Notes: a model not told the origin generated them from the sequence alone. A stretch of DNA of 64,000 nucleotides from an uncultured cyanobacterium (GCA_963793265.1 CAWBZI010000006.1:320001-384000), one strand, 5' to 3'. Shown: positions 10,923 through 42,182, counted from the stretch's first letter. Made by a program: numbers and translations.

Positions 10923-11390
10923 CTATAAGCGACGGCGCGCGTCTAACCACTGCTGCAAAATAATAGCAGCGGCTTTTCTATCAATCAAACCTTTTTTGGC
11001 GTTTTTCTTTTGGCCCTTTTTCTGGCCTTTTGGAGCGCTGTTTGGAGGACGGCGCGATCGCCCCTCAGCCATCATCATTTCTTCAGCCGCAAAAGAAGTT
11101 AGCCGCTCGTCAACAAATTCTACCGGCAAGTTCAGCGCCTTCGACAGCATCCTCGCCTGCTTCTGCGTTTTCTTAGCCTGGCTACCAATCTCACCACCTA
11201 AGGTATAGGGTAAGCCAACGACTAATACCTCAATGTTTCTTTGTTCGACAAGTTTGCGCAGGGGAATCAGAACGCTCTCAAAGGTGGTGCGGTGGAGCGT
11301 GGTGAGGCCGGTGGCGATGAGGCCAGTGCGATCGCAGCCCGCCACCCCAATTCGCCTCGCACCCAAATCCAGTCCTAATGCAGAAACCAT
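10923..11390 (-). CDS. ruvX: YqgF/RuvX RNase H-fold nuclease (pre-16S rRNA processing)
   Basis: LGLDLGARRIGVA, VVGLP, VDERLTS, IDRKAAAIILQQWL. Confidence 0.93.
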   Translation of the reverse strand: MVSALGLDLGARRIGVAGCDRTGLIATGLTTLHRTTFESVLIPLRKLVEQRNIEVLVVGLPYTLGGEIGSQAKKTQKQARMLSKALNLPVEFVDERLTSFAAEEMMMAEGRSRRPPNSAPKGQKKGQKKNAKKGLIDRKAAAIILQQWLDARRRL

Positions 11391-11418
11391 ATATGCCTAC
11401 CAGCCTTAACAGACTGCA

Positions 11419-12768
11419 TCAACCAGCCGCGTCATCATCCGTCGTCTTCTGAGCGCCCTCACTAGAACTTCCATCCAGCGGCAGCTTAGTCATATTTTCC
11501 AAAGAGAACCTATCCCAGGCCAAGCCATCCCAGCTCAGCCCGTCACCCGCAGGTGTATCTAGCGCTGGGCCATGCCACGAAAAGCGCCCCGGCAGCGGTG
11601 TCCCGGTCGGCTGCAACCCAGCCAGTCCGCTCGGCAGCTTCAGCCCTTCTAGCGCGCCCGCCTTAGACTCACGCACCTTATGCCACACAGAGCGCGACAT
11701 CATCAGCGTATTTTCAATCTCAAGCGCGCCAATTTGCCGCAAATACTCTTCCCGCTCCGTCTGATAGTCAAGCGACATAAGTTGCAGCGGCTGATTCGGA
11801 AACTTCTGCACCACCCCAGCCATCTGCGCCATCAGCTCAGGATAGAGCCAGGTATAGGCCGGATGCACCGTCAGCTTGGCGCTATGCGGCGCACTGCCAT
11901 CGCGACAAATTTTAATTTCAAAATAGCCAATCGCCGTCTTCCGCTGTGGCTCAAACACGTAGGCCGAAACGGTTTCTTCGCGATGAACCAAACGGGTCAT
12001 CCGCGCTTTAAATTTGCCTGCAAACGTGGTCTTAAAGTCTTGAATTTGGTAGTCCAGCACCTGACGCACTAGCGGCGGAATAGAGACGGTTTCGAGCTGA
12101 TAAATAAGCTGCGCGTCGGCATTGCTCACCGGCAGCAAATTAGGCAAATCAGGATCGTGCTCAGAAAGCGACTCTAGCTGCTCGGGCTGAATTGACCAGT
12201 AGGTTGCACGTGCCAAAGGCTGAAAGCCGTTGTGTCGATATAAGGAAAGGCCAAACGTATCGTTAACGTCTGTTTCACTAATCCAATACTGGGCCTCGCG
12301 AATATGCTCAAAGCAGTGGCGCAAAAGCTGCGAGCCCACGTCCATACTCAAATGAAGCTGAGGATTTTCACCTTCTGCCCCCTCCACAGGAGGTTGCTCA
12401 TCTGAATTGCTCTTTTTCTTTGACTTAGCCTTCTTCGCAGCTTTCTGAGCCAGATTCACCAGCATCCGATCAACTTTCCAGGTGCTCAATGTTCGGTTAA
12501 ATGGCGATACCTGCACCATGCCATGCAGCGCCCCATCGGCTTCGGCCACAAAGGCTGAGAAGAGATGCTGTAACGGGTTTGGGAATAAAGTCAGCGCCTT
12601 CATGGGGCCATACCAGCGGCGCAACTGCTGAATGTACTCGGCAATTTCGGGCGCTTCGGTGGCGTGAGAAGCAATCTCGGTAGCACCAGCAACCCTGATA
12701 TTGTCTAAATCACGCAGGTGAATAGAGCGAATAAAAAGAGTGGAATCTGAAGAATTGCTTCGAGTCAT
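11419..12768 (-). CDS. Cyanobacterial GNAT-family protein
   Basis: GMVQVSPFNRTLSTWKVDR, VGSQLLRHCFE, LYRHNGFQPLA. Confidence 0.75.
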   Translation of the reverse strand: MTRSNSSDSTLFIRSIHLRDLDNIRVAGATEIASHATEAPEIAEYIQQLRRWYGPMKALTLFPNPLQHLFSAFVAEADGALHGMVQVSPFNRTLSTWKVDRMLVNLAQKAAKKAKSKKKSNSDEQPPVEGAEGENPQLHLSMDVGSQLLRHCFEHIREAQYWISETDVNDTFGLSLYRHNGFQPLARATYWSIQPEQLESLSEHDPDLPNLLPVSNADAQLIYQLETVSIPPLVRQVLDYQIQDFKTTFAGKFKARMTRLVHREETVSAYVFEPQRKTAIGYFEIKICRDGSAPHSAKLTVHPAYTWLYPELMAQMAGVVQKFPNQPLQLMSLDYQTEREEYLRQIGALEIENTLMMSRSVWHKVRESKAGALEGLKLPSGLAGLQPTGTPLPGRFSWHGPALDTPAGDGLSWDGLAWDRFSLENMTKLPLDGSSSEGAQKTTDDDAAG

Positions 12769-12810
12769 AAGAACTCCGTAAGGGCGCTTTGTAAGAGCAA
12801 GGGGTTTCGG

Positions 12811-13977
12811 CTATTTTGGGCGGATGAGCACAACGGGCGTTTGCTCGTCGGCGTTGCCCGCAGGGTTATCAATCAAAGCCTGAACCAGTAAAGGCTGATC
12901 GGTGCCAGCGGTCGCTGCTAATATTTTAACGGCTTTTAAATCGTTGACATCCACAATGGCCGCTTTAAGTCCGGTTTCTGCAAAAATTTGGTCTACAAGT
13001 CGCTGAGAATGGGCCGGGCCAAGCACAATGAACTGATCAAAGGGCGGCAGGGTGCCGGTCACATCGTCAATCAGCCGCGCCTGCTCGCCTGCTAGCTGAT
13101 AAAACATTCCAGGCTTGCCGAATACTTTGGCGACCGCGCCAATCGCAAACGCCCAGGCTACCTGCCACGGCCCCGACACATCAATCAGCGTTTGCATACC
13201 GCAGGCCGTGGCCAAACTAGAGGTCGGCATGAAGTAGTAGCACAGACGCTTGGCTAGCCAGCCGGGCTTCACGGTGTTGGGATGGCGCAACCGGCTTTGC
13301 ATAATTGCAACCGGCGTTTCGCCAATGGTGACGATATCGCCTTCTTTGGCGCAGGGCTTGACGTAGTGCTTAACGATTTCTACGGTGTCGTCAAGGTTGG
13401 TCAGCAGGTGAGTGGGGATGGGCAGAATGCTCGCGACGCTGTTTTCACGCCAGTTGTTCGCGGCTTCTGGCTTAGGGAATTTGAGCGGGAAGATGAAGTG
13501 GCCGGTTTTAGGAATGCGGCCTTCGGGGCCGTAGGAGGTGTAGTGCACCTGCACCCAGAGCGATTTGAGCTGGCTGAGGTCAGGGCCAGTGATATCTATC
13601 TTCAGCTTGGCGTTGGTGGCTTTGCCGACTTTGACGATGTAGGCAAACCAATAGTTGTCAGACCGCGCGGGAAAGTCTTCGTGCTGGGGAATAACCTCTG
13701 TTTTGACGGTAATGCCGTCTAAGGAGCCTTTTGAAAGTAGCTTGTACTCTACGTCTACATCGGCAATGAATATTTCTAGGGTGCGGGTGCGGTTTGAGAA
13801 AACTGCGTCTAGCGAGATTGCGTAGTGGTTAGGCTCGTAGGTGTCCAGCTTCCAGTCTTTAGCAGTCAGTTCTAGATCATTGCCGGGGCGCTGGCGATAC
13901 TGCCATTCGATGAATAGGTAGGCCGCAACGCCGATGATAATTATCAGTAAAAATAACGTTCCAATCGCGGACACCAT
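12811..13977 (-). CDS. F420-0:gamma-glutamyl ligase-like (CofE/DUF129) protein with N-terminal TM
   Basis: GDIVTIGETPVAIMQ, ARLIDDVTGTLPPFD, AIVDVNDL, NPAGNADEQTPVVLIR. Confidence 0.75.
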   Translation of the reverse strand: MVSAIGTLFLLIIIIGVAAYLFIEWQYRQRPGNDLELTAKDWKLDTYEPNHYAISLDAVFSNRTRTLEIFIADVDVEYKLLSKGSLDGITVKTEVIPQHEDFPARSDNYWFAYIVKVGKATNAKLKIDITGPDLSQLKSLWVQVHYTSYGPEGRIPKTGHFIFPLKFPKPEAANNWRENSVASILPIPTHLLTNLDDTVEIVKHYVKPCAKEGDIVTIGETPVAIMQSRLRHPNTVKPGWLAKRLCYYFMPTSSLATACGMQTLIDVSGPWQVAWAFAIGAVAKVFGKPGMFYQLAGEQARLIDDVTGTLPPFDQFIVLGPAHSQRLVDQIFAETGLKAAIVDVNDLKAVKILAATAGTDQPLLVQALIDNPAGNADEQTPVVLIRPK

Positions 13978-14058
13978 ACCTAAACCTCTTTCCTCAAGAC
14001 CTGCTACGCACCAGATTGTAGGCGATCGCTGTAACACCTCAATAAAAATTAAGTCGCC

Positions 14059-14556
14059 CTACAGCAGATTAAACAGCGCGTCATCCAGCTCATAGCCCAG
14101 CATTTGCGTCATAAACTTCAGGCGCGATCGCCCGTCTATCTGCTGACCTTTTAGCCAGCTATCAATCGCAAACACCTTGCCCATCACAAAAATCTCTAGT
14201 GACTCCGGGTTATAACGAATGCCGTCAATTGGGCTGAACTGATGCGGCACCAGCATGGCCGTATAGCGACTCAGCTCACCTGACTCCCAGTCAAGATAAA
14301 GCGGTAGCCAGGGGTATTGCGCGTCTAGCCGGATGAACCACAGGCGAATTTCTGGGATTTCTGACAGCTCACGCGGATCGCTGGCCTCGCGCGGAAAATC
14401 GATTTCAAAGCTGAACATGAGATCGGAGCTGCTGAGCGCTTTGCCTTTTGAAGGGTCTGTATCGTGCGCTTTGATAACGGGATCGATGACCTGCTGTGCC
14501 GGGGTGAGATCGAGAGATTGGAAATGAGGAGTGGTGAGAGCGATCGCTTGTTTCAT
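14059..14556 (-). CDS. CRR6-family NDH-1 (NdhI) maturation factor (DUF1817)
   Basis: DPRELSEIPEIRLWFIRLDAQYPWLP...RYTAMLVPHQF...NPESLEIF. Confidence 0.88.
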   Translation of the reverse strand: MKQAIALTTPHFQSLDLTPAQQVIDPVIKAHDTDPSKGKALSSSDLMFSFEIDFPREASDPRELSEIPEIRLWFIRLDAQYPWLPLYLDWESGELSRYTAMLVPHQFSPIDGIRYNPESLEIFVMGKVFAIDSWLKGQQIDGRSRLKFMTQMLGYELDDALFNLL

Positions 14557-14647
14557 ACGAAAAGAAATGAAGGGCTCTTTCCATTTTGCCAGGCGACTGG
14601 GCTTAGGGATTGCTGTATTCTTTGTCTAGTGTTTTCGTGCGATCGCC

Positions 14648-15799
14648 ATGGCTACCTCCCCCTCGGGATCTTCCAATCCTCCCAAAAAGAAGATCTGCAT
14701 CACCCTGGGCACTCGCCCCGAGGCCATCAAATTAGCACCCGTCATCCGCACCTTTCAGCAAAACCCTGAGTTCAGCAGCAAATTCGACACCCAGGTCGTA
14801 CTCACAGGCCAGCACAAAGAAATGGTCGCACAAGTCATGTCGCTCTTTGAGCTGCAAGCCGACCACGATCTCGACATCATGCAGCCTAAGCAAACCCTTA
14901 GCGACATCACCTGCCGCAGCCTTCAAGGGTTAGAGTCCTTGTTTGTAGAAATGAAGCCTGACATGGTGATCTCTCAGGGCGATACCACCACTGCTTTTGC
15001 CGCTGCCCTCGCCGCCTTTTATCAGCAGATTCCAGTCGGCCACGTCGAAGCCGGTTTGCGCACCGACAATATTTTGAACCCCTTCCCCGAAGAAGCCAAC
15101 CGCAGACTCGTTTCCCAAATCGCCACGCTGCACTTTGCGCCCACCGCCCAATCGGTCACTAACCTCAAAGCTTCAGGCGTGACCCAGGGCATTCATCAAA
15201 CCGGCAATACCGTTATTGACGCGCTGCTCACCGTTGCCGACCAGTTCCCTGTTTGCGAAGTTGCGGGCCTTGACTGGGACAAACACCGCGTTATTCTTTC
15301 AACCGTTCACCGCCGAGAAAATTGGGGTGAACCGCTTAAAGATATCGCCCAAAGTTTTTTAGAAATTCTGAACGCCTTTCCCGACACGGCGCTGCTACTG
15401 CCCTTACATCGTAATCCCACCGTTCGAGAGCCGCTTAAGGCATTGCTAGGCGATCATCCTCGCGCATTTTTAGTAGAACCTTTGGACTATGCTCAGCTCG
15501 TTGGGGCGATGAAGCGCTGTACGCTGCTGCTGACTGATTCTGGTGGACTGCAAGAAGAAGCGCCGGGCCTTGGTAAGCCTGTGTTGGTGCTTAGAGAGAC
15601 AACGGAAAGGCCAGAAGCCGTTGAGGCGGGTACGGCCAAGTTAGTCGGGACTCGTCCGTCAACAGTTATCGCTGCTGCCTCAGAGCTATTAAGTGATAGA
15701 GCGGCCTATTCAGCGATGGCAAAGGCGGTCAATCCTTTTGGCGACGGCTTCGCGGCGCAGCGCATTGCCGAGATTGTCACTGACTACTTTTCAGACTGA
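14648..15799 (+). CDS. wecB: UDP-N-acetylglucosamine 2-epimerase (non-hydrolysing)
   Basis: GTRPEAIK, QGDTTT, HVEAGLRT, PFPEEANR, TDSGGLQEEAP. Confidence 0.96.
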   Translation: MATSPSGSSNPPKKKICITLGTRPEAIKLAPVIRTFQQNPEFSSKFDTQVVLTGQHKEMVAQVMSLFELQADHDLDIMQPKQTLSDITCRSLQGLESLFVEMKPDMVISQGDTTTAFAAALAAFYQQIPVGHVEAGLRTDNILNPFPEEANRRLVSQIATLHFAPTAQSVTNLKASGVTQGIHQTGNTVIDALLTVADQFPVCEVAGLDWDKHRVILSTVHRRENWGEPLKDIAQSFLEILNAFPDTALLLPLHRNPTVREPLKALLGDHPRAFLVEPLDYAQLVGAMKRCTLLLTDSGGLQEEAPGLGKPVLVLRETTERPEAVEAGTAKLVGTRPSTVIAAASELLSDRAAYSAMAKAVNPFGDGFAAQRIAEIVTDYFSD

Positions 15800-15816
15800 C
15801 TACTTTTCAGGGTGAT

Positions 15817-15862
15817 GGTTTGCTGTGTCGAAGGCGGAGGGCTAAGGCTTTATGCCCCTGCG
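15817..15862 (-). repeat. REP-like palindromic element (copy A)
   Basis: Minus strand cgcaggggcataaagccttagccctccg-ccttcgacacagcaaacc, similar to 42052-42111. Confidence 0.6.
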
Positions 15863-15880
15863 GATTTGTTGGTGACATTC

Positions 15881-16141
15881 TTAAGAATCTTCTTCCTTGA
15901 TTTCTTTGACTAAATTCTTTTTGGAAGCCTTTAGCTCTTTCCACAGCTCCTTAATATCGTTGTAGGCTTCAGCGCTACTTACCTTGCCACCCGTTTCTAA
16001 GCCACAAATGAGCGCTACTCGCTGAGCAAATTCTTGCAAGTTGGCATTAAAGGCCAGATTTTGAGGCGTGAACTCACCTTGATAGGTGTTTCGCGGCGTG
16101 AAGAACTCGTCTCTTAGCTGCTTTTTATTCTTCTCTGGCAT
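15881..16141 (-). CDS. Conserved small cyanobacterial hypothetical protein
   Basis: YQGEFTPQNLAFNANLQEFAQRVALICGLETGGKVSSAEAY is a recognisable cyanobacterial family motif. Confidence 0.85.
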   Translation of the reverse strand: MPEKNKKQLRDEFFTPRNTYQGEFTPQNLAFNANLQEFAQRVALICGLETGGKVSSAEAYNDIKELWKELKASKKNLVKEIKEEDS

Positions 16142-16369
16142 CTATATGCTCCTGTGGCTGAACAAAGAAAATTTAGATTATTCTGGTATACGGATTTGGC
16201 AATAAATAGAATCGGTATTTTTTAGTTTGGTTATCACAGAACGCTCTTTGATTGCACGCTTTGGCTACAGAGCGCCTTGTCTTATAAGGGGGAATCTAAT
16301 GCCATAAGAACTTGACTGTAGTCTGTAATAGTAGCTCGTTTTCTCTTAATTACCTAGTCTCAACTCAAT

Positions 16370-16383
16370 GTAGTATCCGATAC
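16370..16383. promoter_or_regulatory. Putative NtcA box
   Basis: GTA-gtatccga-TAC (GTA-N8-TAC) in a divergent intergenic region. Confidence 0.35.
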
Positions 16384-16654
16384 TGGTTTTACTCATTCTC
16401 CTATGTTCAGCTAGCGGAGGGTTCATCAGTGCGGCATATTTTAATCGAAAGTAGGCCACAAAATTGTTTTGTGTGAGTCTCCATATACAAAGACAAAAAT
16501 TAATAGGGACTGACCTGATTGAGCCGGATCAGTGGGTAAGATACTAATATCAAATCTTATTTATGTGTGACGAATGTTACGCCGATGGGCCAGTCCAAAG
16601 GTGTCACACGCAAACTATTCTCAAGAAATCTTCTCAAGTTGAGAGCAGCGAGTT

Positions 16655-18511
16655 TTGCCCATGAGCTTCAGCCAATCGTTCGATGTCGCGCATACTTTTC
16701 GCCGTGTATTTAAGACGAACGTATTGAAAAAAGGACTCAGCGCAGGCTTCTTAGGATTGGGCTTAACCACACTGGCAGCGCCTGGTGGTGTGGCTGCTGA
16801 GCGAGTGGTGCTCAAAGTAGGCCCGCTGCGACAGTCCATTGAGGTGACCGATTTGGAAACCTTTGCAGAAACAGGAGAGGTGCCTGATAATCTCAGCCTT
16901 TACAAGCGGTTTTTATCGCCTCAGGTGCAGCTTAGCTTGGGCCAAACGCTGGATCTAGACCCAAGAATGGGCGATCGCATCATCGAAGACGTGATGAATT
17001 CAGCCAACGGCGAACTCCTCCTCGACACCCTTTCGCAAATTGCACCAAACCTCACACTGCCTCAGCTCCAAGCCGCCATCCGCCTTGCCGCCACCCAAAG
17101 CAACGGCCTCAGCGTACTCGGCATTCTTCGCGCCGTCCCTCAAGACACCCTAGAAGTCGATTTAAGCTCAGCGATCGCCCTCGTCTCACAAATCAACCTT
17201 TCCAACCTGGAAAGCCAGTCTCTCAGCGGCGTACTAGAGCAAGAGCTTAAGACCACCGATTTAGCCGCAGCGCTACCCACCGATATCAATCCAGCGGCAT
17301 CCGGCTCCGTAGACTTTTCCTATCGCACCCTATCTTTTCGCGATGAGGGGCGCGATCGCGTTATTCCCCTCAACCTGTACTGGAACCGAGACGCCCACGG
17401 CCCGTTAGTCATCCTCTCTCACGGCTTTGGCGCAGACCGCTTTTTCCTCAGCTATCTTGCTGAACATTTAGCCTCTCACGGGCTCACAGTCGTTTCGATA
17501 GAGCATCCTGGGAGCAATGTTCAAGCACTTGTCAATTTGCCGCTAGATCCCGGTGCAGTGGGCTCACCTAGCAAGCTATTACCCGCTACAGAATTCTTAG
17601 ATCGGCCTCGCGATGTGAGCTTTGTGCTCGACCGCCTCAGCCAAATGAACGAAAGCGACTCGATCTATCAGGAGGCTTTCAACACTGAAGACGTGACGAT
17701 GATCGGTCACTCTTTAGGTGGCTATACCGGGCTGGCCTTGGCCGGGGCGAAGTTGGACTTGCGATCGCTCCAAAGCTTCTGTCAAAACATTCAGCCATTG
17801 GGCGTTTCCCCTGCCGACTGGCTCCAATGTGCCGCCGTGGACTTAGACGAACAGCAGGCCGACTTAAGCGATGGCCGTATTAAGCAGGTCGTTGCAATGA
17901 ATACGCTAACGGGTCAACTATTTGGCGATGCGGGCCTCTCAGAAGTCACCGTGCCGACGCTGCTACTAACGGGCACCAAAGACAGCGTGACCCCGACTCT
18001 GGATCATCAGCTCGCACCTTTCGAGCAGCTTGCCGGAGAAAAGTATCTGCTCGCGGTTATTGGCGGCACCCACCTCAGTACAGGTGACCCGGAGAACGTA
18101 AACCCAGCGCTCACCGAGCTACCGTTCATGTCTGAGCTGCGGCCCGCAGAAACCGAAAACCTGCGACGAATGCTAAAAGGAGTGTCTTTGAGTTTTGTTG
18201 AGCAGCGATCGCCCGAAGCCGCACAATATAAACCTTTTTTAAGCTCAGCCTACGTCCAGTCATTCTCTACCTCAGTGCTGCCCCTGAGGCTGGTAGAAAC
18301 CTTGCCCAGCGGCGTCCGTAGCTGGCTTGAGATGACCTCTAGACTTTCAGCTAATGCGCAGCCCGGCATCACCGATCAGGTGATGTCGTTGAGCTATCTA
18401 AAAGCGATTGAAACCAAGCCGCAGTGGCAGAAAACGATTGCAGTGCATTTGCAGGCGGCTCAAGTAGCGACTTTGTTGCGATCGCCCTTCCCCTTCATGG
18501 CCGGTCTCTAA
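16655..18511 (+). CDS. DUF1400-containing alpha/beta hydrolase
   Basis: Signal-like N-terminus, AAERVVLKVGP (DUF1400), SHGFG, GHSLGG nucleophile elbow, GGTHLS. Confidence 0.88.
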   Translation: MPMSFSQSFDVAHTFRRVFKTNVLKKGLSAGFLGLGLTTLAAPGGVAAERVVLKVGPLRQSIEVTDLETFAETGEVPDNLSLYKRFLSPQVQLSLGQTLDLDPRMGDRIIEDVMNSANGELLLDTLSQIAPNLTLPQLQAAIRLAATQSNGLSVLGILRAVPQDTLEVDLSSAIALVSQINLSNLESQSLSGVLEQELKTTDLAAALPTDINPAASGSVDFSYRTLSFRDEGRDRVIPLNLYWNRDAHGPLVILSHGFGADRFFLSYLAEHLASHGLTVVSIEHPGSNVQALVNLPLDPGAVGSPSKLLPATEFLDRPRDVSFVLDRLSQMNESDSIYQEAFNTEDVTMIGHSLGGYTGLALAGAKLDLRSLQSFCQNIQPLGVSPADWLQCAAVDLDEQQADLSDGRIKQVVAMNTLTGQLFGDAGLSEVTVPTLLLTGTKDSVTPTLDHQLAPFEQLAGEKYLLAVIGGTHLSTGDPENVNPALTELPFMSELRPAETENLRRMLKGVSLSFVEQRSPEAAQYKPFLSSAYVQSFSTSVLPLRLVETLPSGVRSWLEMTSRLSANAQPGITDQVMSLSYLKAIETKPQWQKTIAVHLQAAQVATLLRSPFPFMAGL

Positions 18512-18638
18512 TCACAAACCACTCGTGAGCATTTCGTCAAAAAGTTTAGATCCTAAATAGCCTTGATAGGCGGTTGTTCTGCCAGAATAGAGTACTGCAA
18601 ACCTAGTAGCAGTTACTAAACTTCTGGAGAGAACTCGA

Positions 18639-20324: not shown

Positions 20325-20419
20325 GAAGTTACAATCACTTAAAAGCGCTAGCTAGAGTCATCACCAGATTTTTCTAGCTAGTTGCTGATTCATTAAGCGG
20401 CGAACACTAACGAATAGCT

Positions 20420-20656
20420 ATGTCAGTCAGCTCAGAAACGGTTAAGCGAGACATCGATTTACTCACCAGCGATCAGCTTCAGCAGATTGCTGATTTTATC
20501 GCTTTTTTGAGGTTTCGAGATAAGCGTCAACACATCGTCTTAGATCCTGAGCAGCTAGCTCTATTAGCGACTGAGTTTGCTGATGAGGATCGGGCGATTG
20601 CAGAAGAGGGCATAAATGACTACGCCAAGATGCTTCTACAAGAAGACAAATCATGA
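20420..20656 (+). CDS. Putative antitoxin (DUF2281-like)
   Basis: Small acidic ORF (LQQIADFIAFLRFR...EDRAIAEEGINDY) overlapping the PemK-like gene by ATGA. Confidence 0.7.
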   Translation: MSVSSETVKRDIDLLTSDQLQQIADFIAFLRFRDKRQHIVLDPEQLALLATEFADEDRAIAEEGINDYAKMLLQEDKS

Positions 20657-21006
20657 AAGCGCCGCTGAAACGAGGCGAAGTTTGGCTAGCTGCGCTAAAT
20701 CCGTCTCAAGGCTCCGAACAGGCGGGTACCCGCCCAGTCATTATCTTTCAGAACAACGTCATATCACAGTTTTCTACCACGATCATTACCATCCCCCTAA
20801 CAAGTAATCAGCGCCGTGCTAGATTGCCTATTTGCTTACTGATAGAGCAGGGAGACGGCGGCTTAGCACAAACTTCTGTCGCCTTGTGTTTTCAAATGCG
20901 CGCAATCGATAAAACACGGCTTATCAAAAAGCTGGGTCGGCTGAAAGAAAAAACGGTTACTCAACTAGAAGCAGTTGTCTTGATAACTCTAGGCTACGAG
21001 ACATAG
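20653..21006 (+). CDS. PemK/MazF-family endoribonuclease toxin
   Basis: RGEVWLAALNPSQGSEQAGTRPVII, IPLTS, QMRAIDKTRL. Confidence 0.92.
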   Translation: MKAPLKRGEVWLAALNPSQGSEQAGTRPVIIFQNNVISQFSTTIITIPLTSNQRRARLPICLLIEQGDGGLAQTSVALCFQMRAIDKTRLIKKLGRLKEKTVTQLEAVVLITLGYET

Positions 21007-21036
21007 ATTTTTCGTCAGTCATTCTTTAAATAACTC

Positions 21037-21255: not shown

Positions 21256-21272
21256 CATATGCAATAAATATA

Positions 21273-21347: not shown

Positions 21348-21414
21348 ATATTTACGCAAAGTGGATTAGTAAGCTGGCTTACAATTAAGACAACCGTTAA
21401 AGGAGGGCCACTCT

Positions 21415-22144: not shown

Positions 22145-22161
22145 CGATCGCAAATAGTCCA

Positions 22162-33244: not shown

Positions 33245-33411
33245 AGACAGCGAGGGGTTAGGCAGAAAGGTGCGAACAAAAGGCGACTGACAGCTATAGA
33301 AATCAACAGTTGCTATTCTATCTATTTCGGATGGACTTTTGGACGATTCGGCTTCAAGGGTTCACTGCCAAAGACGACTTTCAATCAGGCAAAACTTACC
33401 GCTACGGTGCG

Positions 33412-33888
33412 CTACGGTCGCCGGGCAGGAGTCTTGTTCTCAAATATCAACACTTTTACTAAGCAAATAAAACCGATGTTGATCCAAATGTCTGCCAGGT
33501 TAAAAACCGGGAACTGAGTTACCGGGAATACCTGTAAAAAGTCCACAACTTCTCCAGTCAAAAAGCGATCGATACCGTTGCCAAAAGCACCACTTAATAT
33601 AAAGCCGTAGCCGACTTCTTCCCAGCGGTCGGGCCAGCGCGCGGTGAGCCCTAGCACAATTAGCGCCACACTCACGAGCAGCGACAGCCAGCGCAACCAT
33701 TCGCCGTTTTCACTAAACAGGCTCCAGGCAGCGCCTCTGTTAGTGGTGTGATAAAAGTTCAGTACACCTGGAATGATTTCGATTGCCTCTCTGAGCGGTA
33801 GCGCCTGAAGTACCCACTGTTTTGTGAGCTGATCGAGGATGACGCCAGCGATCGCTACCAGCCAAAAAACAGGGTTTCTAAGTCTCAT
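33412..33888 (-). CDS. lspA: Lipoprotein signal peptidase II
   Basis: DQLTK, NRGAAWS, GNGIDR, VVDF, VFNLAD. Confidence 0.96.
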   Translation of the reverse strand: MRLRNPVFWLVAIAGVILDQLTKQWVLQALPLREAIEIIPGVLNFYHTTNRGAAWSLFSENGEWLRWLSLLVSVALIVLGLTARWPDRWEEVGYGFILSGAFGNGIDRFLTGEVVDFLQVFPVTQFPVFNLADIWINIGFICLVKVLIFENKTPARRP

Positions 33889-33921
33889 AGATAATCACTT
33901 CAAGTTCGCTAGGTCAGTAAG

Positions 33922-34518
33922 TTAGTAAAACAGGGCTTTACGCAAGCCGTAGGCAATAAGGGCGATCGCACAGGTCACCATTACCTGTCCAGGGATCAGC
34001 ACTATAGAGTATGTCATGATGGCGGTTGGCAGGGAAAAGTCAGCCGCGATCCAGCGAAATAAGTACCCCAAGCACAGATAGGTAAGCCCGCATACGTGCA
34101 CCACCAATAATCCGCTCAAAGCCGCAAATCCTAGCCGCTCGGGCGTGGGCTTATCTCGAAATGCCAGCTTGCCACACAGCCACGCTGCCGGAATAAAGCC
34201 CAGTAAATAGCCGAAGCCCGGATCGCGCAGGTAGCTCAGCCCAGCGTCCTGAGTAAATATTTCTAGCTGAAACCGCTCAAACAGTACAACGCCTAGAATC
34301 ACATAGGCAATTTGTGCGATCGCTGCCGCATTCTTCCCGCCCATACAGCCCGTAAACAGCGCCGCACCGACCTGAAACGTCACCCCCAGCGAATAGGGCA
34401 CCACCGCACTCGCTTCGCCCTGCCACAAAAGCCAGGGCACCCCAGCTTCAAGCCAGCTACTCAAAATCGTCAAAATCAGGCCAATCAGCGCCCAAAGTAG
34501 CTCGTACGGAGCAAACAC
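33922..34518 (-). CDS. bioY: Biotin transporter BioY
   Basis: Hydrophobic. TFQVGAALF, GLSYLRDPGFGYLLGF. Adjacent to lspA as in other cyanobacteria. Confidence 0.85.
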   Translation of the reverse strand: MFAPYELLWALIGLILTILSSWLEAGVPWLLWQGEASAVVPYSLGVTFQVGAALFTGCMGGKNAAAIAQIAYVILGVVLFERFQLEIFTQDAGLSYLRDPGFGYLLGFIPAAWLCGKLAFRDKPTPERLGFAALSGLLVVHVCGLTYLCLGYLFRWIAADFSLPTAIMTYSIVLIPGQVMVTCAIALIAYGLRKALFY

Positions 34519-34728
34519 CTATCTTTTTCTCGCCTACGTAAAAACCTTATTAGCGAACCTTTGCCGCCTGTCTCTGCTCAGCATTCTAGGCTAATACCTC
34601 CCCCGCGCGGCCCGTATCTATCCAAACCATCCTTTTTTAAGGAACGTAACTTTTAGGCAAATCTGCTTAAATCCGCTTGATACAGGCTTTACACTTGTTT
34701 GCACTATTGTCTGAGTGTAGAGCCCAAC

Positions 34729-35706
34729 ATGTTTCCTACTCATCGCCCCCGCCGCCTGCGATCGCACGAAAACCTCCGCCGCATGGTGCGAGAAAACATC
34801 GTCACCACAAACGATCTGGTCTATCCCCTATTCGCCGTTCCCGGCGATAGCTTTTCTCAAGAAGTCAAATCGATGCCCGGCGTCTATCAGCTTTCGGTAG
34901 ACAAAATCGTTGAAGAAGCTAAAGAAGTCTATGACCTGGGCATTCCTGCCGTCATTTTGTTTGGCATTCCTACCGAAAAAGACACCGAAGCCACGGGCGC
35001 ATGGCACGATCATGGCATTGTGCAAAAGGCAACTGAGGCCATCAAAAAAGCCGTCCCCAATCTGCTAGTAATCGTCGATACCTGCCTGTGCGAATACACC
35101 GATCACGGCCACTGCGGCTACTTAGAAGTGGGCGATCTTTCAGGCCGAGTGCTCAATGACCCCACCTTAGAATTACTAAAGAAGACGGCCCTTTCTCAAG
35201 CTAACGCAGGCGCTGACATTATCGCCCCTTCCGGCATGATGGACGGCTTTGTGCAGGCCATTCGCCAGGGTCTAGACTCAGGTGGCTTCAACGACTTGCC
35301 CATTCTTTCCTACGCCGCCAAATATTCTTCTGCCTACTACGGCCCCTTCCGTGACGCTGCCGAATCAGCCCCTCAGTTTGGCGACAGACGCACCTACCAG
35401 ATGGATCCAGCCAACGGCACCGAGGCCATTAAAGAAATCGCCCTCGACATTGCCGAAGGCGCTGACATGCTGATGGTCAAGCCCGCGCTAGCCTACATGG
35501 ACATCATCTGGCGAGTTAAGGAAGCGACTAATCTGCCGGTAGCGGCCTACAACGTCTCTGGCGAATATTCCATGGTGAAAGCAGCAGCGCTCAACGGCTG
35601 GATAGATGAGGAAAAAGTGGTTATGGAAACGATGACCAGCTTTAAACGATCTGGCGCAGATATGATTTTGACTTACCACGCTAAGGATGTTGCGCGCTGG
35701 CTCTAA
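34729..35706 (+). CDS. hemB: Porphobilinogen synthase
   Basis: [37 protein letters not shown]. Confidence 0.97.
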
Positions 35707-35727
35707 TAGATTCCTTTTTGGAGCTGT

Positions 35728-36420
35728 TTAGTAAGCCCCAGACCCCTTAGACAAAATTGTGGTTACCGTCTTTACAATCAGCTTCAGGTCATAGGCCGGG
35801 CTCCAGTGATGCTGATAGGCCAGATCCATATCCACGATGTCTTCAAAGTCTTTGACTTGCGATCGCCCGCTCACCTGCCACTGGCCGGTCAGGCCCGGTC
35901 GTACGTCCAGGCGCTTCCAATGGCGATCGCTGTAGTGCTGCACCTCATCGCCCGTAGGGGGGCGTGTGCCAACTAGGCTCATATCACCCGTGAGCACGTT
36001 CCAGAACTGGGGGAACTCGTCCAGGCTTGTTTTCCTCAAAAACTGCCCGATTCGGGTTACGCGCGGATCGGTAGAGTTCTTGAATATTAAGCCCTGGGCT
36101 TCGTTGGCAATAGTGGCTTTCAGCTCATCGGCGTTGCTCACCATTGAGCGGAACTTCCAAATGCGAAACGGCTTACCCTGCAAACCGAAGCGCTCTTGCG
36201 AATAGAGGATAGGCCCAGCAGAGTCAAGGCGAATAGCGATCGCGACGGGCACAAATAAAACGCACAGTATTGAAAGCCCGACACAAGCACCGACAATATC
36301 AATAGCGCGCTTGAATACAGAGCGCGTGGATATATGAGGCAGTCGTGGGAAGGGAGGCTGATAAAGGCTCACCCGTGACGGTCTTGACATAACTGGATAA
36401 GATATGGCGCTACGTGACAT
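35728..36420 (-). CDS. Sugar (priming glycosyl) transferase (start may be 36468)
   Basis: KRAIDI, KFRSM, DPRVTRIGQFLRKTSLDEFPQ, GDMSLVGTRP, PGLTGQWQVSGR. Confidence 0.92.
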   Translation of the reverse strand: MSRSAISYPVMSRPSRVSLYQPPFPRLPHISTRSVFKRAIDIVGACVGLSILCVLFVPVAIAIRLDSAGPILYSQERFGLQGKPFRIWKFRSMVSNADELKATIANEAQGLIFKNSTDPRVTRIGQFLRKTSLDEFPQFWNVLTGDMSLVGTRPPTGDEVQHYSDRHWKRLDVRPGLTGQWQVSGRSQVKDFEDIVDMDLAYQHHWSPAYDLKLIVKTVTTILSKGSGAY

Positions 36421-36816
36421 GGGTTTTCTCGAACGTTTGATAGTGACCAAAGGTACCTGCACCCTCATCGAACAGCTTGTTGCTTAAGGCGTGTATATCC
36501 GGCATACATATAGATATACAAACATTTAACAAAAGACAGTCGTAAGTTAAGTACTTCTACCCAACTCAGACTGACCAAATTATAGTTAGTGCCTCAACTT
36601 TCTACGCCTTTATGCGTAAAAATACCGAAATATCTCCTGAGCGACAAGTTAACGGTCGTATTCGTGAAGAAACGATGAAGATTCTGTAGGATTCTCAGAA
36701 AGCTATCTTCTAATCGCTTCCTCTTGCATCAAAGCGCCTTCCATCGGAGGCTTGAGGGTTTCTTTGATGGGGTAGAGTAAGTCAATATCAATTCTGGTGC
36801 TAGATTCGCAGCCGCT

Positions 36817-38013
36817 ATGACCAATCCCTTACACAGCCCAGAAAACGCGCTAGAAAGTTCATCCAAGCGTGTAGATTCTTTCTATTCAGACGTTTTGTCG
36901 GTTTGGCGAACTCAGATTGCCGCTGACCTGCCAACTCAACCGGCTAGCACGCATGAGGCGATCGCGCAGTGGCTTGTCGGCGAATCAGCACGATTCGAGC
37001 CGATGGGCTCGTCTGAGCGCAAGCTGGCTCAAAAAGCGATGGACTATCGTTACAGAATCTTTATATCTCGCTACTGGGGCCTCTCGCCCGAAAGAGCCTA
37101 TAAAAGGCTGCTGCAAAAGCTGGGCGGTTTGTTTTTAATTCGCAGTAAGGTGCGTACCTGGATTGCGCTGAGTCGCGATCGCAAACGCGCGGTCAAAGAC
37201 GTGCTGCAAGAGGTAATTCAAGAAATGCTTCAGAGCGATCGCCACATGCGGCAGCAAACGCAGTGGATCGGCCAGTGCACTACGCGCGGCAGCCTGCGAA
37301 ATTTGTTGACCCTTGCCACCATTGAAGAGTACTGTCTGCGGCCTATTCGCAACCAGCCGCTATTGGTCTATCGCTTTGTGAACTACTTGAGAAGGTCGCA
37401 GCGCGGTGGCATGACTCAGGTTCCCAGCGCCGAACTCATCCAGCTCATCTCCGAAGAAATCGGCACCAGCGAAGCCGACGGCACCCTCAGCCTATTGGAC
37501 TTTGAGGCGCTAGACCGCTACGAGGTGCAAAAAGAATTTGAAGAACAGCAGGCCGCTCGCAGGCACGTCAAGCAGGAATTTTCTGACTACTTGAACGAAG
37601 AGCTAGGCTCTACGGCGGTGCAGTGGCTAGAGCTGCACTTGCAGGGCTACACCCAAGACATGATTTCACAGCAGCTCGATATAAAAGTTCGCGAAGCCTA
37701 CCGCCTGCGAGAAAAAGTCAGCTATCACGCCATCCGCATTTTCACGATCAAAAAGCAGCCCGATCTGGTTTTCACCTGGCTAAAAACCTCGCTTAAGCAC
37801 CACAATTTAGGGCTCACGCCGACTCAGTATGAAGCCTTCTTAGGCGCGATTTCTGAGCCTCAGCGGCAGATCTTAGAGGCTTTTAAGGCAGGGAATACGG
37901 TTAAGGAAGTCGCTGGGATGTTTGGGCTTACCGAAAAGCAAACGACCAGTCAGTGGGCTGAGCTGTATCTTAAGGCGCAGGATATTCGGACTGAAGGGAC
38001 GGAGGGTAAGTAG
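36817..38013 (+). CDS. HetZ-related protein
   Basis: KVRTWIALSRDR, VLQEVIQEM, IEEYCLRPIRNQPLLVYRFVNY, C-terminal HTH-like segments. Confidence 0.75.
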   Translation: MTNPLHSPENALESSSKRVDSFYSDVLSVWRTQIAADLPTQPASTHEAIAQWLVGESARFEPMGSSERKLAQKAMDYRYRIFISRYWGLSPERAYKRLLQKLGGLFLIRSKVRTWIALSRDRKRAVKDVLQEVIQEMLQSDRHMRQQTQWIGQCTTRGSLRNLLTLATIEEYCLRPIRNQPLLVYRFVNYLRRSQRGGMTQVPSAELIQLISEEIGTSEADGTLSLLDFEALDRYEVQKEFEEQQAARRHVKQEFSDYLNEELGSTAVQWLELHLQGYTQDMISQQLDIKVREAYRLREKVSYHAIRIFTIKKQPDLVFTWLKTSLKHHNLGLTPTQYEAFLGAISEPQRQILEAFKAGNTVKEVAGMFGLTEKQTTSQWAELYLKAQDIRTEGTEGK

Positions 38014-38050
38014 AGGCGGTCGAAGCCCTCATCCCCAACCCTTCTCCCAA

Positions 38051-38632
38051 CTACGTCTTCGACGCCCGCCGCGCGTCCATCACCCGGCCAAAATTAAGCT
38101 TAAACTCCTTCAGCCCAACCAGCCCGCCCGGCTCAGTATCCCAAGAAGCCGACAGCACACCATACGTCAGCCCCAACACGCCAAGCCCAAAGCAGCCCAT
38201 CGTCACCAACAGCACAGCAATCGGCGGAAACTCCACAATCTCACGGCTCTGCAAGTAATAAGACAAAAAGAAAATGCCGACGCCTAAAGCCACAGGCGCA
38301 CCTGAGAGTATCGCCATTCTGCGCAGCATTCGACGGCTCACGGCTTCAGGAATCGCGCCGCTATCGTCTTTCTTCTTACCCGGCTTACCCTTCTCCGCTT
38401 TAGCCTTAGCCTTCCGACGATTGCCCGCCAAAATCTCATCGGCTCGGGCTCTTGCCCTTGCCGACATATCAGAGGCTTCAGGCTTTTTCTTCTTAGCCTT
38501 AGCCGTTTTGGCTACAGAATTCTTCGCTTCAGTAGCCTTGTCTTTATTAGCACTAGCTGCCTTCTTAGCTTTGGCTTTTTTACCCTTGGGCTCAAAAGGC
38601 AGGCCAGCTTTATCGTCAGATTGAGAAGCCAT
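38051..38632 (-). CDS. PAM68/DUF3464 photosystem II assembly factor
   Basis: LPFEPK, IPEAVSRRMLRRM, two TMs, YGVLSASWD. Adjacent to rpsO. Confidence 0.88.
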   Translation of the reverse strand: MASQSDDKAGLPFEPKGKKAKAKKAASANKDKATEAKNSVAKTAKAKKKKPEASDMSARARARADEILAGNRRKAKAKAEKGKPGKKKDDSGAIPEAVSRRMLRRMAILSGAPVALGVGIFFLSYYLQSREIVEFPPIAVLLVTMGCFGLGVLGLTYGVLSASWDTEPGGLVGLKEFKLNFGRVMDARRASKT

Positions 38633-38693
38633 ATCGACAACTCCCGTGTTTACAGCGCTGAACAGATCTAAAAAGTATCTGTGTCGGATGACT

Positions 38694-38963
38694 TTAGCGA
38701 CGAATGCCGAGCTTCTGGATCAAAGCTTTATAGCGCTCGGGATCTTGCTTAGTCAGATAGGCAAGCAAACGCTTGCGCTGACCAATCATCTTCAGCAGGC
38801 CGCGACGGGAGGAATAGTCTTTTTTGTTCTGCTGTAGGTGCTTAGTTAGACTGTTAATCCGATCGGTGAGCATGGCAACTTGCACATCAACCGATCCGGT
38901 ATCGGTTTCATGAACCTGATGCTCGGAGATAATTTCTTGTTTGCGTTCTTGAAGCAAAGGCAT
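38694..38963 (-). CDS. rpsO: 30S ribosomal protein S15
   Basis: [16 protein letters not shown]...[20 protein letters not shown]. Confidence 0.97.
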
Positions 38964-39177
38964 AGTTTCAGACAATAAATAAGATTCAATATTCTACCAT
39001 AGCCAATCTTATCTATTGCATCTGTGGCCTAACTTCAATCAATAAACCGACTGATAAATCAGCCTGACTTGATAGCTGCAAACCCGCTACGGGAATTAAT
39101 GAAGGGTGAGAATCGCGGCTGGTGATTCTTACTGGTGATTTTTTAAATGCCCTTCACACAATATTTAGTCAGCTCAA

Positions 39178-41205
39178 ATGATTCAGGTTTCTCGCTCACA
39201 CACTTTGCCGGTAGCCTTAGGTCGATTGACTGCTCCTGCTAAAAAGACTGGCGATCGCACTCTACACGGCAGGCCCACTAGAAAACTCGCGACAGGACTA
39301 CTCGGATTTGCAGTCGGTGCGCTGTCTTGGAGTGCTTTGTCTTTGGGTGCGATCGCCAATCAAGCGATCGCCCTACACCGACCCCAAATTTCTACCCAAG
39401 CCGCAAGCAATCCTGCACCATCCCGCAGCCCGCTCTCTACCCAGGCAATGTACCGCGAGCTAGCAAATCTCACGGGCCGAGTCGAAAGCACCTATCTTGC
39501 TAATCACGCTCAAAACCAGCCAACCCAGCTCCGCGTAGTCGATTCCACACTCACCGCCAGCGCGAACACCGCTCCTACTATTCCAACGCCCCTACCCGCC
39601 GAACTACAGGCCGCTCAGCAGCTTTTAAACGACTGGCAAGGGCTAATCTCCCAGGGCGAGTACGAAACAGCACACCAGCGTTTTCAAACGGTGACTGATT
39701 CGTTGCGCAGTGCCCAAGTAGCCCAAACGCAGATTGCCGGGCGCAGCGCTCAGCCCGAAGTCCGCTCTATCTGGCTAGACCGTGAAACGATTGTCTCTGC
39801 CGGTTCTCAAGAGGGCTTAGCCAAAATCTTTGAGCGCTTCAAAGCAGCGGGCATTAACACCGTTTTTGTTGAAACCGTCAACGCGGGCTACCCCATCTAT
39901 CCCAGCACGGTTGCCCCAGAGCAAAACCCGCTCATCTCAGGTTGGGATCCGCTTCAGGCTTCTGTAGAACTCGGCAAAGCCTATGGCCTAGAAGTTCACG
40001 CCTGGGTTTGGCTATTTGCAGCGGGCAACCAGGCGCACAATCCGCTCGTGGGCAAGCAGACCAACTACCCTGGCCCTATTCTCACCGCTCACCCCGACTG
40101 GGCAGGCTTCGACAATCACGGCAACCTCATCATCCCCGGCCAAACCAAACCCTTCCTCGACCCTGCGAATCCCGAAGTCCGCCAGTATCTCTTCAACATC
40201 CTCAGCGAAATCGCTGGTCGCTACGACGTAGACGGCATCCAGTTCGACTACGTTCGCTATCCTTTTCAAGATCCTGCTAACAACCGCCTCTTTGGCTATG
40301 GCAATGCCGCTCGCCAGCAGTTCCACGCTCTCACTGGTGTCGATCCAATTTCTCTTTCTCCTAAAAACGGCGGCGACCATCGCAAAGCCTTCCTCTGGGG
40401 TCAGTGGACAGAATTTCGCACGCAGCAAATCAGCTCTTTTGTGGCTGAAGCCTCTCAGCGCCTCCGCCACCAAAAGCCCGGCATCAAAATTTCTGCCGCC
40501 GTTTTTGCAGACGACACTCGCAAGCGCCAGCAAACGCTTCAGCAAGACTGGGAGGACTGGGCCGATCAGGGTCTAATTGACTGGATTGTGCTGATGAGCT
40601 ATGCCAGCAGCACTCAGCGCTTTGATGAGCTGATTCGGCCTTGGGTTGTTGAATCTAGCTATCGTCACACGCAAGTGATTCCGGGTATTCGATTGTTGAA
40701 TCTGCCAGCCGCGATCGCCCACGACCAGCTTCAGCTACTGCGAGATTTGCCCACCAACGGCTATGCTCTCTTCGCTGCTGACAACCTCACGGGCGATGTG
40801 CAGGCAATGCTAGCGAGAACGCAGGGCAATGCTCAAAGCGATGTTGCGACCAGCGGCAGTGATACAACAAGCTATACAACCGCTTCGGCTCAGTACAAGT
40901 CTCTTCAACAAGAGTGGAACTGGCTGCTGACAAATCAACAGATTCAGGGAGATTCGCAGCGGTTAGCGCGATGGGTGAGTGATGTCAATCAGATAGGAGA
41001 GAGTTTGGATGATTTGGGGAGTGAGCCTTCGGCTAGGGAGTTGCAGCAGGTGACGGCGCGGTTGGATGGGTTGGGGCGATCGCTCCCCACCAGCCTGAGC
41101 GTAAATGTAGCAAGCACCCCTTATCGCCTCCGCACCTGGCAAAACCGCCTCACCGCCATCAATCGGCTATTGGCCCACACCCAAACCTCACCTGTAAATT
41201 CGTAG
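39178..41205 (+). CDS. GHL10/DUF187 glycoside hydrolase-like protein
   Basis: EVRSIWLDR, GINTVFVET, LEVHAW, LDPANPEV, YDVDGIQFDYVRYP, QDW. Confidence 0.88.
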   Translation: MIQVSRSHTLPVALGRLTAPAKKTGDRTLHGRPTRKLATGLLGFAVGALSWSALSLGAIANQAIALHRPQISTQAASNPAPSRSPLSTQAMYRELANLTGRVESTYLANHAQNQPTQLRVVDSTLTASANTAPTIPTPLPAELQAAQQLLNDWQGLISQGEYETAHQRFQTVTDSLRSAQVAQTQIAGRSAQPEVRSIWLDRETIVSAGSQEGLAKIFERFKAAGINTVFVETVNAGYPIYPSTVAPEQNPLISGWDPLQASVELGKAYGLEVHAWVWLFAAGNQAHNPLVGKQTNYPGPILTAHPDWAGFDNHGNLIIPGQTKPFLDPANPEVRQYLFNILSEIAGRYDVDGIQFDYVRYPFQDPANNRLFGYGNAARQQFHALTGVDPISLSPKNGGDHRKAFLWGQWTEFRTQQISSFVAEASQRLRHQKPGIKISAAVFADDTRKRQQTLQQDWEDWADQGLIDWIVLMSYASSTQRFDELIRPWVVESSYRHTQVIPGIRLLNLPAAIAHDQLQLLRDLPTNGYALFAADNLTGDVQAMLARTQGNAQSDVATSGSDTTSYTTASAQYKSLQQEWNWLLTNQQIQGDSQRLARWVSDVNQIGESLDDLGSEPSARELQQVTARLDGLGRSLPTSLSVNVASTPYRLRTWQNRLTAINRLLAHTQTSPVNS

Positions 41206-42176: not shown

Positions 42177-42182
42177 ACTTAG

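Follow-up and report, generated by a model that had tools for sequence, protein, structure and literature searches.

A polar compositional footprint around HIP1 sites in the genome of an uncultured cyanobacterium

The stretch of DNA analysed here, called the window in the following, comprises 64,000 nt from an uncultured cyanobacterium (G000:C6:320001-384000; the source genome G000 amounts to 5.68 Mb in 7 contigs and is 99% complete). The element in question is HIP1, the palindromic octamer GCGATCGC, which separates a G-rich from a C-rich flank. HIP1 is described as the commonest repeat of most cyanobacterial genomes, with a function that is still open after three decades (PMC5861425, PMC13756078). 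Genes were called with a purpose-built codon model, which gave 5,004 genes and 86% coding sequence for G000. The ilvD gene of G000 is 94% identical to that of Phormidesmis priestleyi Ana, which places the genus, and the genus relatives are distant, with a median protein identity to G000 of 73-76%. Further G numbers denote the compared cyanobacterial genomes, L001-L030 are ilvD loci, and "5' strand" denotes, for either strand, the flank that precedes HIP1 on its 5' side, read in the direction of the word.

HIP1 flanks in the window and in the whole genome

The window harbors 74 copies of HIP1 spanning positions 218..63084, compared to 1.55 expected by chance, and the density is about 1.2 per kb on all seven contigs. 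A preliminary description of this DNA had proposed, from examples picked by eye, that G-rich sequence turns into C-rich sequence exactly at HIP1 sites. Its three detailed hand counts proved exact in all six figures. The site at 11328..11335, located in yqgF/ruvX (10923-11390, minus strand), is G-rich on the left and C-rich on the right (25 G/7 C versus 6 G/21 C; G minus C of +17/-15 in the 50-nt flanks), the one at 19476..19483, located at offset 837 of the dihydroxy-acid dehydratase gene ilvD (18639..20324, plus strand), has 31 G/18 C versus 13 G/30 C, and the one at 41076..41083 shows a strong two-sided flip (18 G/5 C versus 7 G/13 C; +15/-12 at 50 nt). The labels given to yqgF/RuvX and ilvD were likewise borne out; ilvD is a host gene and has no part in the mechanism. 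Seven of the eight sites named there go the stated way in 50-nt flanks. The site at 30592..30599 does so only weakly (-4/-11) and fits at 100 nt (+5/-26), while the one at 14022..14029 does not show the pattern (-12/-6 at 50 nt; -14/-12 at 100 nt). The site at 14639..14646 lies just before wecB and is followed by a C-rich tract (14710-15124), and that at 31359..31366, in a PBP1A-family gene, adjoins a C-only tract (31367-31556). Three close sites at 28485, 28509, and 28548 (28485..28555) illustrate that the effects of neighboring sites add up, and cancel between them.

The choice of examples by eye, a worry already voiced in the preliminary description, is not the source of the pattern, because 67 of all 74 window sites share its direction, as judged from a larger G minus C value in the left than in the right 50 nt. 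The same is true for 83% of the 6,888 HIP1 sites of the genome, which show an antisymmetric GC skew of 0.164 at 5-55 nt (z = 85.6), amounting to +0.32/-0.32 in the first 10 nt and +0.13/-0.14 between 25 and 50 nt; it is present in every one of the 26 blocks of 250 kb. For comparison, all 256 palindromic octamers were considered, of which 140 with at least 20 sites were scored (HIP1 and 139 others, the latter at least 200 nt away from HIP1). The controls are flat in the all-site average, with a best z of 2.7 among the 139 and a mean of -0.008 (sd 0.018) for the 61 with n of at least 50. The G-to-C flip at HIP1 is confirmed as a real, genome-wide, and polar footprint.

Silent sites carry this footprint most clearly. 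Within 10 nt of HIP1, four-fold degenerate sites contain G at 0.47 and C at 0.11 on the 5' side and C at 0.47 and G at 0.11 on the 3' side, with an equal shift in plus- and minus-strand genes, as expected from the claimed identity of the polarity on both strands, and in all eight four-fold codon families. Two-fold sites shift as well, with C shares of 0.24 versus 0.61 and G shares of 0.68 versus 0.32 on the 5' and 3' sides, respectively. The log contrasts between the sides are 1.82 for G/C, 0.96 for G/A, 1.00 for T/C, 0.82 for G/T, 0.86 for A/C, and 0.14 for T/A, corresponding to a base order of G >> A ~ T > C on the 5' side and its mirror image on the 3' side. The original wording of G/T-rich versus C/A-rich flanks does not hold, since the asymmetry is one of G versus C; the T/A component is small in G000 and takes either sign elsewhere (-0.18 in Nostocales). 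Amino acid use near HIP1 is also shifted, with V, E, and M increased on the 5' side and T, I, and P on the 3' side.

Plotted against distance, the skew at four-fold sites is polar and decays on both gene strands. Isolated sites start from an ln(G/C) of about 1.5 at 1-10 nt, which falls to 1.0 at 31-40, 0.64 at 81-100, 0.35 at 201-250, and 0.13 at 701-1000 nt; this smooth decay is fitted by two exponentials of 45 and 570 nt. The effects of neighboring sites are additive and do not vary with the regional skew (0.97/0.97/1.04 and 0.83/0.84/0.86). The flanks show no helical period of 10-11 nt, only one of 3, nor do they contain a short position-specific consensus of the kind known from DNA uptake sequences, the decay running smoothly to 1 kb. 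The top trimers on the 5' strand include GGG, GTG, GGT, and TGG, and, apart from GA over TC on the 5' strand (+0.19), the six dinucleotide contrasts add next to nothing to the single-base effects. An additional GC-biased conversion is not needed, as the GC content within genes rises by only about 2 points. Flanks acting as hairpin arms were also rejected, there being no palindromic extension of the word; the two bases flanking HIP1 in G000 are complementary less often than composition predicts (0.193 versus 0.267; 0.250 versus 0.286).

An extreme example in the window is a C-rich silent-site tract in ilvD (19484..20159, plus strand), which begins at HIP1 19476 and contains 4 G and 98 C at four-fold sites. 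Of the 217 third positions between 19484 and 20134, 143 are C, 43 A, 17 T, and 14 G; G is almost missing from third positions over 675 nt, until the composition reverts near 20160. The HIP1 site is found in all 30 ilvD loci of the genus, and C exceeds G in the tract in all 29 full-length loci. The switch over about 650 nt reported earlier for ilvD is correct, but represents an extreme case and not the typical reach.

Dependence on the complete word and spread across cyanobacteria

The three peptides encoded by HIP1 show ln(G/C) values of 1.01, 0.95, and 0.94 when spelled with the word, compared to 0.06, -0.04, and 0.06 when spelled without it (87, 2,126, and 484 control sites, respectively). 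A comparison of 752 orthologous genes between G000 and a relative gives the same picture. At 254 positions with HIP1 only in G000, the skew is 0.97 in G000 and 0.08±0.05 in the relative, at 256 positions with HIP1 only in the relative it is 0.69 there and 0.06±0.04 in G000, and at 396 shared sites it is 1.21 and 0.92. Because the same peptides and the orthologous positions without HIP1 show no skew, the word itself is its cause, and amino acid composition is ruled out as the sole source. As an illustration only, since the loci are related, an ilvD site present in 12 of 29 loci goes along with a raised left skew (0.68 versus 0.10) and a lowered right one (0.58 versus 0.95).

All eight bases are needed. 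Seven-base half sites, which may be young, show no one-sided skew (antisymmetry 0.04, n = 437), CGATCG lacking the outer G and C yields -0.04 (n = 428), and GATC outside HIP1 has none in TGATCA or AGATCT (-0.010 each). The exception is represented by GTGATCGC/GCGATCAC sites, which carry a skew of 0.73. A relative has HIP1 in place of 25 of the 93 such sites, and sequences of this type make up 17 of the 57 partners of private sites, so the skew is attributable to their being decayed HIP1 copies, as expected if the C at position 2 is 5-methylated. As judged from sequence only, their excess and orthology fit 5-methylcytosine at this position, a modification shown for HIP1 of Synechocystis (PMC6105098). 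The excess of these TG-type sites, taken as a proxy of methylation, does not visibly track the skew strength across 17 samples. The genus, unlike most other samples, has no excess of near-misses that differ from HIP1 in the first or last base, while it does have one of the GTGATCGC type; Nostocales are nearly devoid of the latter. HIP1 occurs in all three reading frames (2919/2055/1221), and 491 of 883 mapped sites are kept in distant genus relatives; the recently private sites of a close pair (12+16+6) are too few to time the build-up of the skew. Close HIP1 pairs are scarce in G000, with 27 versus 165 expected below 20 nt and 172 versus 240 at 20-50 nt.

The footprint extends beyond the genus. 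Among 16 genomes of other families, 13 are HIP1-rich, and all 13 show a positive ln(G/C) of 0.06-0.52, often weak; only 8-60 kb of each were covered, and several are not distinct from zero on their own. In 48 named cyanobacterial ilvD regions, 45 contain at least 60 scorable sites and 39 of these are positive, counts that overstate independence because the loci are related and one locus is shared; the pooled Nostocales regions reach 0.365±0.05. The 89 HIP1-poor ilvD loci average 0.016±0.059 when pooled, with 23 denser unnamed loci set aside. The genus itself exhibits the strongest values seen (0.47-0.93), while the signal is weak or absent in plasmid stretches of PCC 6803, 7002, and 7120 (-0.06±0.13, 0.16±0.09, and 0.17±0.16, respectively). 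Two alternative words carry no appreciable skew in small samples: GGGATCCC, used by G027 (0.01, 77 sites in 60 kb), and GCSGC on a plasmid of PCC 7822 (0.05±0.05, 336 sites in 100 kb).

Substitution rates and skew tracts

Substitution rates were derived from the pair G057/G011, for which 250 of 277 orthologues were kept (four-fold divergence 0.08-0.45; 27 dropped), by comparing sites near a shared HIP1 (3-40 nt) with far ones (beyond 300 nt). The rates are unpolarised, because the genus relatives are too distant to serve as outgroup, and stationarity is assumed. A metagenome scan yielded no close strains (best protein identity 82%), and blastn against plasmids gave chance matches only. Differences between the window and public contigs came from a mixture of organisms and were left out of the analysis. 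The total four-fold rate is flat, with a near/far ratio of 1.03 (0.91-1.15; intervals in parentheses). At two-fold sites (2,382 sites, 403 differences, 1,000 gene bootstraps), which have two states and are cycle-free if composition is stationary, the changes favored on the 5' strand (C>T, A>G) are raised to 1.27 (1.12-1.45) and the reverse ones lowered to 0.75 (0.64-0.87); none of the 1,000 bootstraps at 3-40 nt gave a favored ratio of 1 or less or a disfavored one of 1 or more. Since the total is flat, the favored changes go up, and their reverses go down, HIP1 is shown to redistribute substitutions between the two strands while leaving their total unchanged.

These values allow a comparison with simple models, which predict favored/disfavored ratios of x1.77/x1.04 for damage, x0.97/x0.57 for one-sided repair including the long tail, and x1.29/x0.76 for a fixation bias. 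The HIP1-anchored directional process suggested in the preliminary description stands insofar as the effect depends on the word, affects silent sites on both gene strands, is additive, and is independent of regional skew; resection damage or methyl-directed repair in their simple forms miss the observed x1.27/x0.75. The favored changes on the 5' strand are A>G, C>T, T>G, C>G, and C>A, with TC-to-TT as the strongest context (1.4-1.8 versus about 1.0). The sums of complementary pairs are conserved (2.07 (1.79-2.38) for A>G + T>C and 1.99 (1.71-2.33) for C>T + G>A, with 2 expected), and the A/G exchange exceeds the C/T exchange on the 5' strand by 1.29 (1.09-1.54) combined and 1.44 at four-fold sites, where a per-base fixation bias predicts 1. 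This excess and the conserved sums lean towards the keeping of lesions on one strand rather than a per-base fixation bias.

Beyond the mean gradient, the residual skew is correlated along the genome, from 0.35 at 100 nt to 0.08 at 10 kb. It forms 626 extreme tracts (534 kb), including that of ilvD, with base shares on the G-rich strand of G 0.58, A 0.17, T 0.17, and C 0.08. This patchiness is real, because the mean gradient alone yields 2 tracts. Relatives retain part of this tract pattern (-0.6 to -0.7 and +0.2 to +0.3 versus -0.15), G054 more weakly so. Their starts lie within 30 nt of HIP1 in 50% of cases, compared to 8% at random. An interpretation as sharp-ended single events was rejected, since a simulated smooth, HIP1-independent field combined with the mean gradient also produces a plateau, a step, and 34-41% anchoring; the free tract ends show no convincing motif or gene boundary (0.12 versus 0.11).

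The local continuity of the skew is broken at HIP1. Within 100 nt, the residuals on the left and right correlate at 0.17 for 1,961 HIP1 sites, but at 0.51 for 2,792 control points, with a small difference at 100-300 nt (0.57 versus 0.64). Each flank tracks the background of its own side, the slope for the opposite side being 0.12-0.30 at HIP1 and 0.34-0.41 at control points, and the partial correlation with the opposite-side background is -0.03 versus 0.22. Because of this break, HIP1 behaves as the edge of short tracts whose sides vary separately. The background skew of the regions is similar in shape to the footprint (r = 0.77 over 60 contrasts). Another C-rich silent-site tract of 4 kb is located in the window at 45429-49458, over the end of a cheA-like gene cluster and through four HIP1 sites.

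Possible mechanisms and known systems

The mechanism behind the footprint is narrowed, not proven. At a probability of roughly 45%, HIP1 may be a start point for a 5'-to-3' strand replacement that keeps the mismatches of the upstream strand. Either strand would be nicked at HIP1, and the nicked strand would be removed and resynthesised 5'-to-3', mostly over tens of bases and sometimes up to a kilobase, such that the strand 5' of HIP1 would be kept as template and the strand 3' of it would lose. Replication mismatches (G opposite T, T opposite G, purine opposite purine) would then be fixed on the 5' strand and erased on the 3' strand by a replacement that would be blind to which strand is new. 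The favored directions agree with the strand preference of replication errors left uncorrected in E. coli, where mismatch-repair-defective strains are reported to undergo transitions twice as frequently when A or C lies on the template of the lagging strand, and transversions when the pyrimidine is located there (10.1101/346874). Putative workers of such a process would be MutS, MutL of the endonuclease type, and Pol I, together with a hypothetical reader of the full, probably methylated octamer. MutS is encoded in 21 and MutL in 19 of 21 genomes, the MutL of G000 carrying endonuclease-type motifs. G000 also encodes Pol I, a Dam-like methylase, and eight C5-methylase matches, one of them with two internal stops and another in two pieces (G000:C1:809848-811017 and C4:93034-94084). 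One C5 methylase (G000:C4:631059-632138; L292) is shared by 5 of 5 genus genomes (69-72% identity), but among the 16 others a single one has a match at E <= 1e-40; from this distribution, the enzyme is a candidate for the HIP1 methylase. Searches for MutH (PF02976), which detected the E. coli control, and for Vsr (PF03852) found neither in G000, and NucS was not found in five genus genomes, with three weak matches among 21. At the same probability, cyanobacteria may possess an undescribed sequence-addressed strand-replacement system, in which a hypothetical protein would read the full (methylated) HIP1, nick either strand, and start its rewriting 5'-to-3' at thousands of sites per genome.

Several observations weigh against strand replacement. 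No nicking enzyme was found, the search for a GmeC-specific one being limited by the lack of a known family to serve as query, and a nick set without regard to strand would have to affect many of the mismatches, which is costly. The skew strength varies from 0.05 to 0.93 among HIP1-rich genomes, all of which contain MutS. Intergenic bases are skewed in the same direction at about a quarter of the strength (0.27 versus 1.10 at 11-30 nt), which is partly due to their slower evolution (0.106 versus about 0.25). The rates come from one unpolarised pair under assumed stationarity, the A/G over C/T excess is not significant at two-fold sites only (1.16, 0.92-1.46), and a fixation bias fits the two-fold rates equally well. 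Finally, the fine sequence-context pattern agrees poorly with that of the regional skew (r = 0.18 over 44 contexts), and the regional skew could not be tied to replication direction (r with gene orientation of 0.11 to -0.02) in this assembly of 7 contigs with no mapped origin.

The same geometry is shared by heteroduplex conversion, and recombination initiation, named as a third option in the preliminary description, is still a candidate. Biased gene conversion would act at recombination tracts formed by transforming or inter-copy DNA that is cut or ends at methylated HIP1, with repair removing the strand 3' of the word by mismatch recognition (G:T, G:G over A:C, C:C); among mismatches, C:C is recognized worst and G:G well. 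Since conversion acts on standing variation, rare events would suffice, and this process would explain the lineage differences and the weak signal on the three model plasmids, as well as the two-fold rates (predicted x1.29/x0.76). DprA is present in 21 of 21 genomes, HIP1, especially when methylated, is reported to lift transformation up to >100-fold in PCC 7002 (10.1101/2024.09.10.611283), its abundance is described as correlating with DNA-uptake genes (PMC13756078), and the pneumococcal Hex system removes donor markers in a mismatch-specific manner, 10:1 against the donor strand (PMC12606429, PMC3375284). However, the A/G over C/T exchange departs from 1, sequenced pneumococcal transformants are described as showing no localised mismatch repair (PMC3375284), and 51 low-divergence stretches do not end near HIP1 more often than by chance, as 6 of their roughly 100 ends lie within 30 nt of the word and about 7 would be expected to do so. 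The latter is a weak test, as many of these stretches are simply conserved genes and not shown to be recombinant. Gene conversion is regarded as unlikely on balance, yet as a serious candidate. It is improbable that the thousands of HIP1 copies act like small termini, on which replication forks or restarted tracts of synthesis tend to converge, with the DNA on either side being copied preferentially in one fixed leading/lagging sense. Such replication polarity predicts the conserved sums, the E. coli strand signature, and the sign, which is that of a terminus; it agrees with HIP1 as a partial boundary of the skew field and with reports that many cyanobacteria replicate from multiple origins without DnaA (PMC7198777). 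It is at odds with the independence from regional skew and with a main decay of 45 nt, which is far shorter than a replicon, and with one copy per 0.8 kb, HIP1 cannot represent a true terminus.

G-rich single strands on the 5' side of HIP1 could also be subject to selection or drive, e.g., for better RecA loading or binding of an uptake protein. This explanation yields x1.29/x0.76 as well, and is backed by a reported preference of RecA for TGG repeats (PMC3763553), by the top trimers on the 5' strand named above, and by reported selection on HIP1 itself (PMC5861425). It is slightly more improbable still, as T is barely favored over A in G000 and disfavored in Nostocales, the dinucleotide contrasts are close to zero with the exception of GA/TC, the 1-kb reach goes without motif or period, and neither the A/G versus C/T excess nor the boundary effect is predicted. 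A one-way change of rates, either by damage on resected single strands or by one-sided repair of the new strand (a directional form of the Elhai model), or possibly a mixture of both, would have the right geometry and sign; the TC-to-TT context is what light damage would give, and the decay of HIP1 into TG-type sites is suggestive of methylation of the C at position 2. As both predicted pairs of ratios fall outside the observed intervals and the seven-base half sites lack a one-sided skew, this explanation is considered very improbable. Next to no weight is left for an artefact arising from codons or amino acids, from hairpins or repeats, or from the picking of sites; the shifted amino acid use near HIP1 would suit it, but it is refuted by the peptide and orthologue controls, the shift of all eight four-fold families, and the missing palindromic extension.

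Among known or proposed systems, the hypothetical GmeC-directed repair of Elhai (PMC4390886) comes close in assuming a HIP1-organized repair of about 1 kb reach by MutS and MutL without MutH, with a methylated C2. In contrast to the footprint, its main text gives no polarity or flank composition, seven-base GmeCGATCG sites are active there while such sites carry no skew here, and the alternative HIP words GCSGC and GGGATCCC are without skew (in small samples, one of them a plasmid); moreover, extra repair should lower the rates, while the near/far ratio is flat, if only for one pair. The Dam/MutH repair of E. coli likewise uses a methylated word to mark strand cutting and resynthesis, and a Dam-like methylase, MutS, and MutL are present here, but MutH was not found, GATC outside HIP1 shows no skew, and the E. 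coli repair is described as bidirectional (PMC5416779), unlike the polar footprint. The skew at a replication terminus shares the switch from G-rich to C-rich, the favored changes, and a similar shape to the regional skew, but HIP1 represents thousands of sites with ranges of 45-570 nt, is independent of regional orientation, and shows a stronger purine component. Meiotic break hotspots exhibit a mirror-image mutation asymmetry, with a rate raised by damage to resected DNA. They resemble HIP1 in the rotational symmetry about a protein-recognized site and in that C is lost from the strand running with its 3' end towards this site, and differ in the raised rate, compared to a flat total at HIP1. 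Chi, which has GT-rich surroundings, is also a recombination-linked octamer with a G-rich strand whose 3' end is at the word; unlike HIP1, which is its own reverse complement, it is described as non-palindromic and strand-biased (PMC5861425). In addition, a search for RecC found it in none of eight genomes, and the HIP1 bias survives codon controls without favoring T; deletion of addAB reportedly did not abolish the benefit of HIP1 in PCC 7002 (10.1101/2024.09.10.611283). The mismatch-specific removal of one strand by pneumococcal Hex could give such a fixation bias, but it is not tied to a sequence word, and the weak test mentioned yielded no connection between HIP1 and tract ends.

The polar HIP1 footprint has apparently not been described so far. 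It was not found in the literature searched, where supplements and subscription papers lay outside the search, so that an earlier mention is possible; the main texts of PMC4390886, PMC5861425, and PMC13756078 contain no match to "asymmetr", and 0, 0, and 2 (unrelated) matches to "skew", respectively. The rate, orthologue, and boundary tests are new. The footprint provides the search for a HIP1 function with a direction (5'-to-3' from the word) and with length scales (about 45 and 570 nt); it requires all eight bases, has a substitution signature of its own, and can be scored in strength for each genome from sequence data alone. It also implies that, in these organisms, the distance to HIP1 leaves its mark on codon use, on GC-skew plots, and on synonymous rates. 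If strand replacement is true, it would be the function of HIP1 or a direct by-product of it, and the rewriting of strands would be frequent enough to reshape silent sites, amino acid choice, and the patchy kilobase-scale skew of the chromosome.

Some further features were noted in the genus and the window. ilvD and the DNA after it (L003, L004, ~1480-3600) are 92.5% identical between two genus genomes, compared to 74% for the neighboring gene, a contrast which suggests an exchange of ilvD between species; for G054, ilvD suggests a close relative, yet the identity is 70-79% elsewhere. Several six-base palindromes are almost missing from the 5.68 Mb of G000 (CCCGGG 6, GAGCTC 7, GGCGCC 9, ACTAGT 22, and AGGCCT 60 copies), as restriction avoidance would give. 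In the window, a KaiC-like protein followed by a histidine kinase is encoded at 24647-27464 (minus strand), adjoined by a chlP-like gene, and a HetZ-related protein 2 at 36817-38013 (plus strand). A frame of 691 codons at 29014-31089 (plus strand) overlaps the PBP1A-family gene on the opposite strand by about 130 nt and shows a weak match only, to a kinase/cyclase fusion family.

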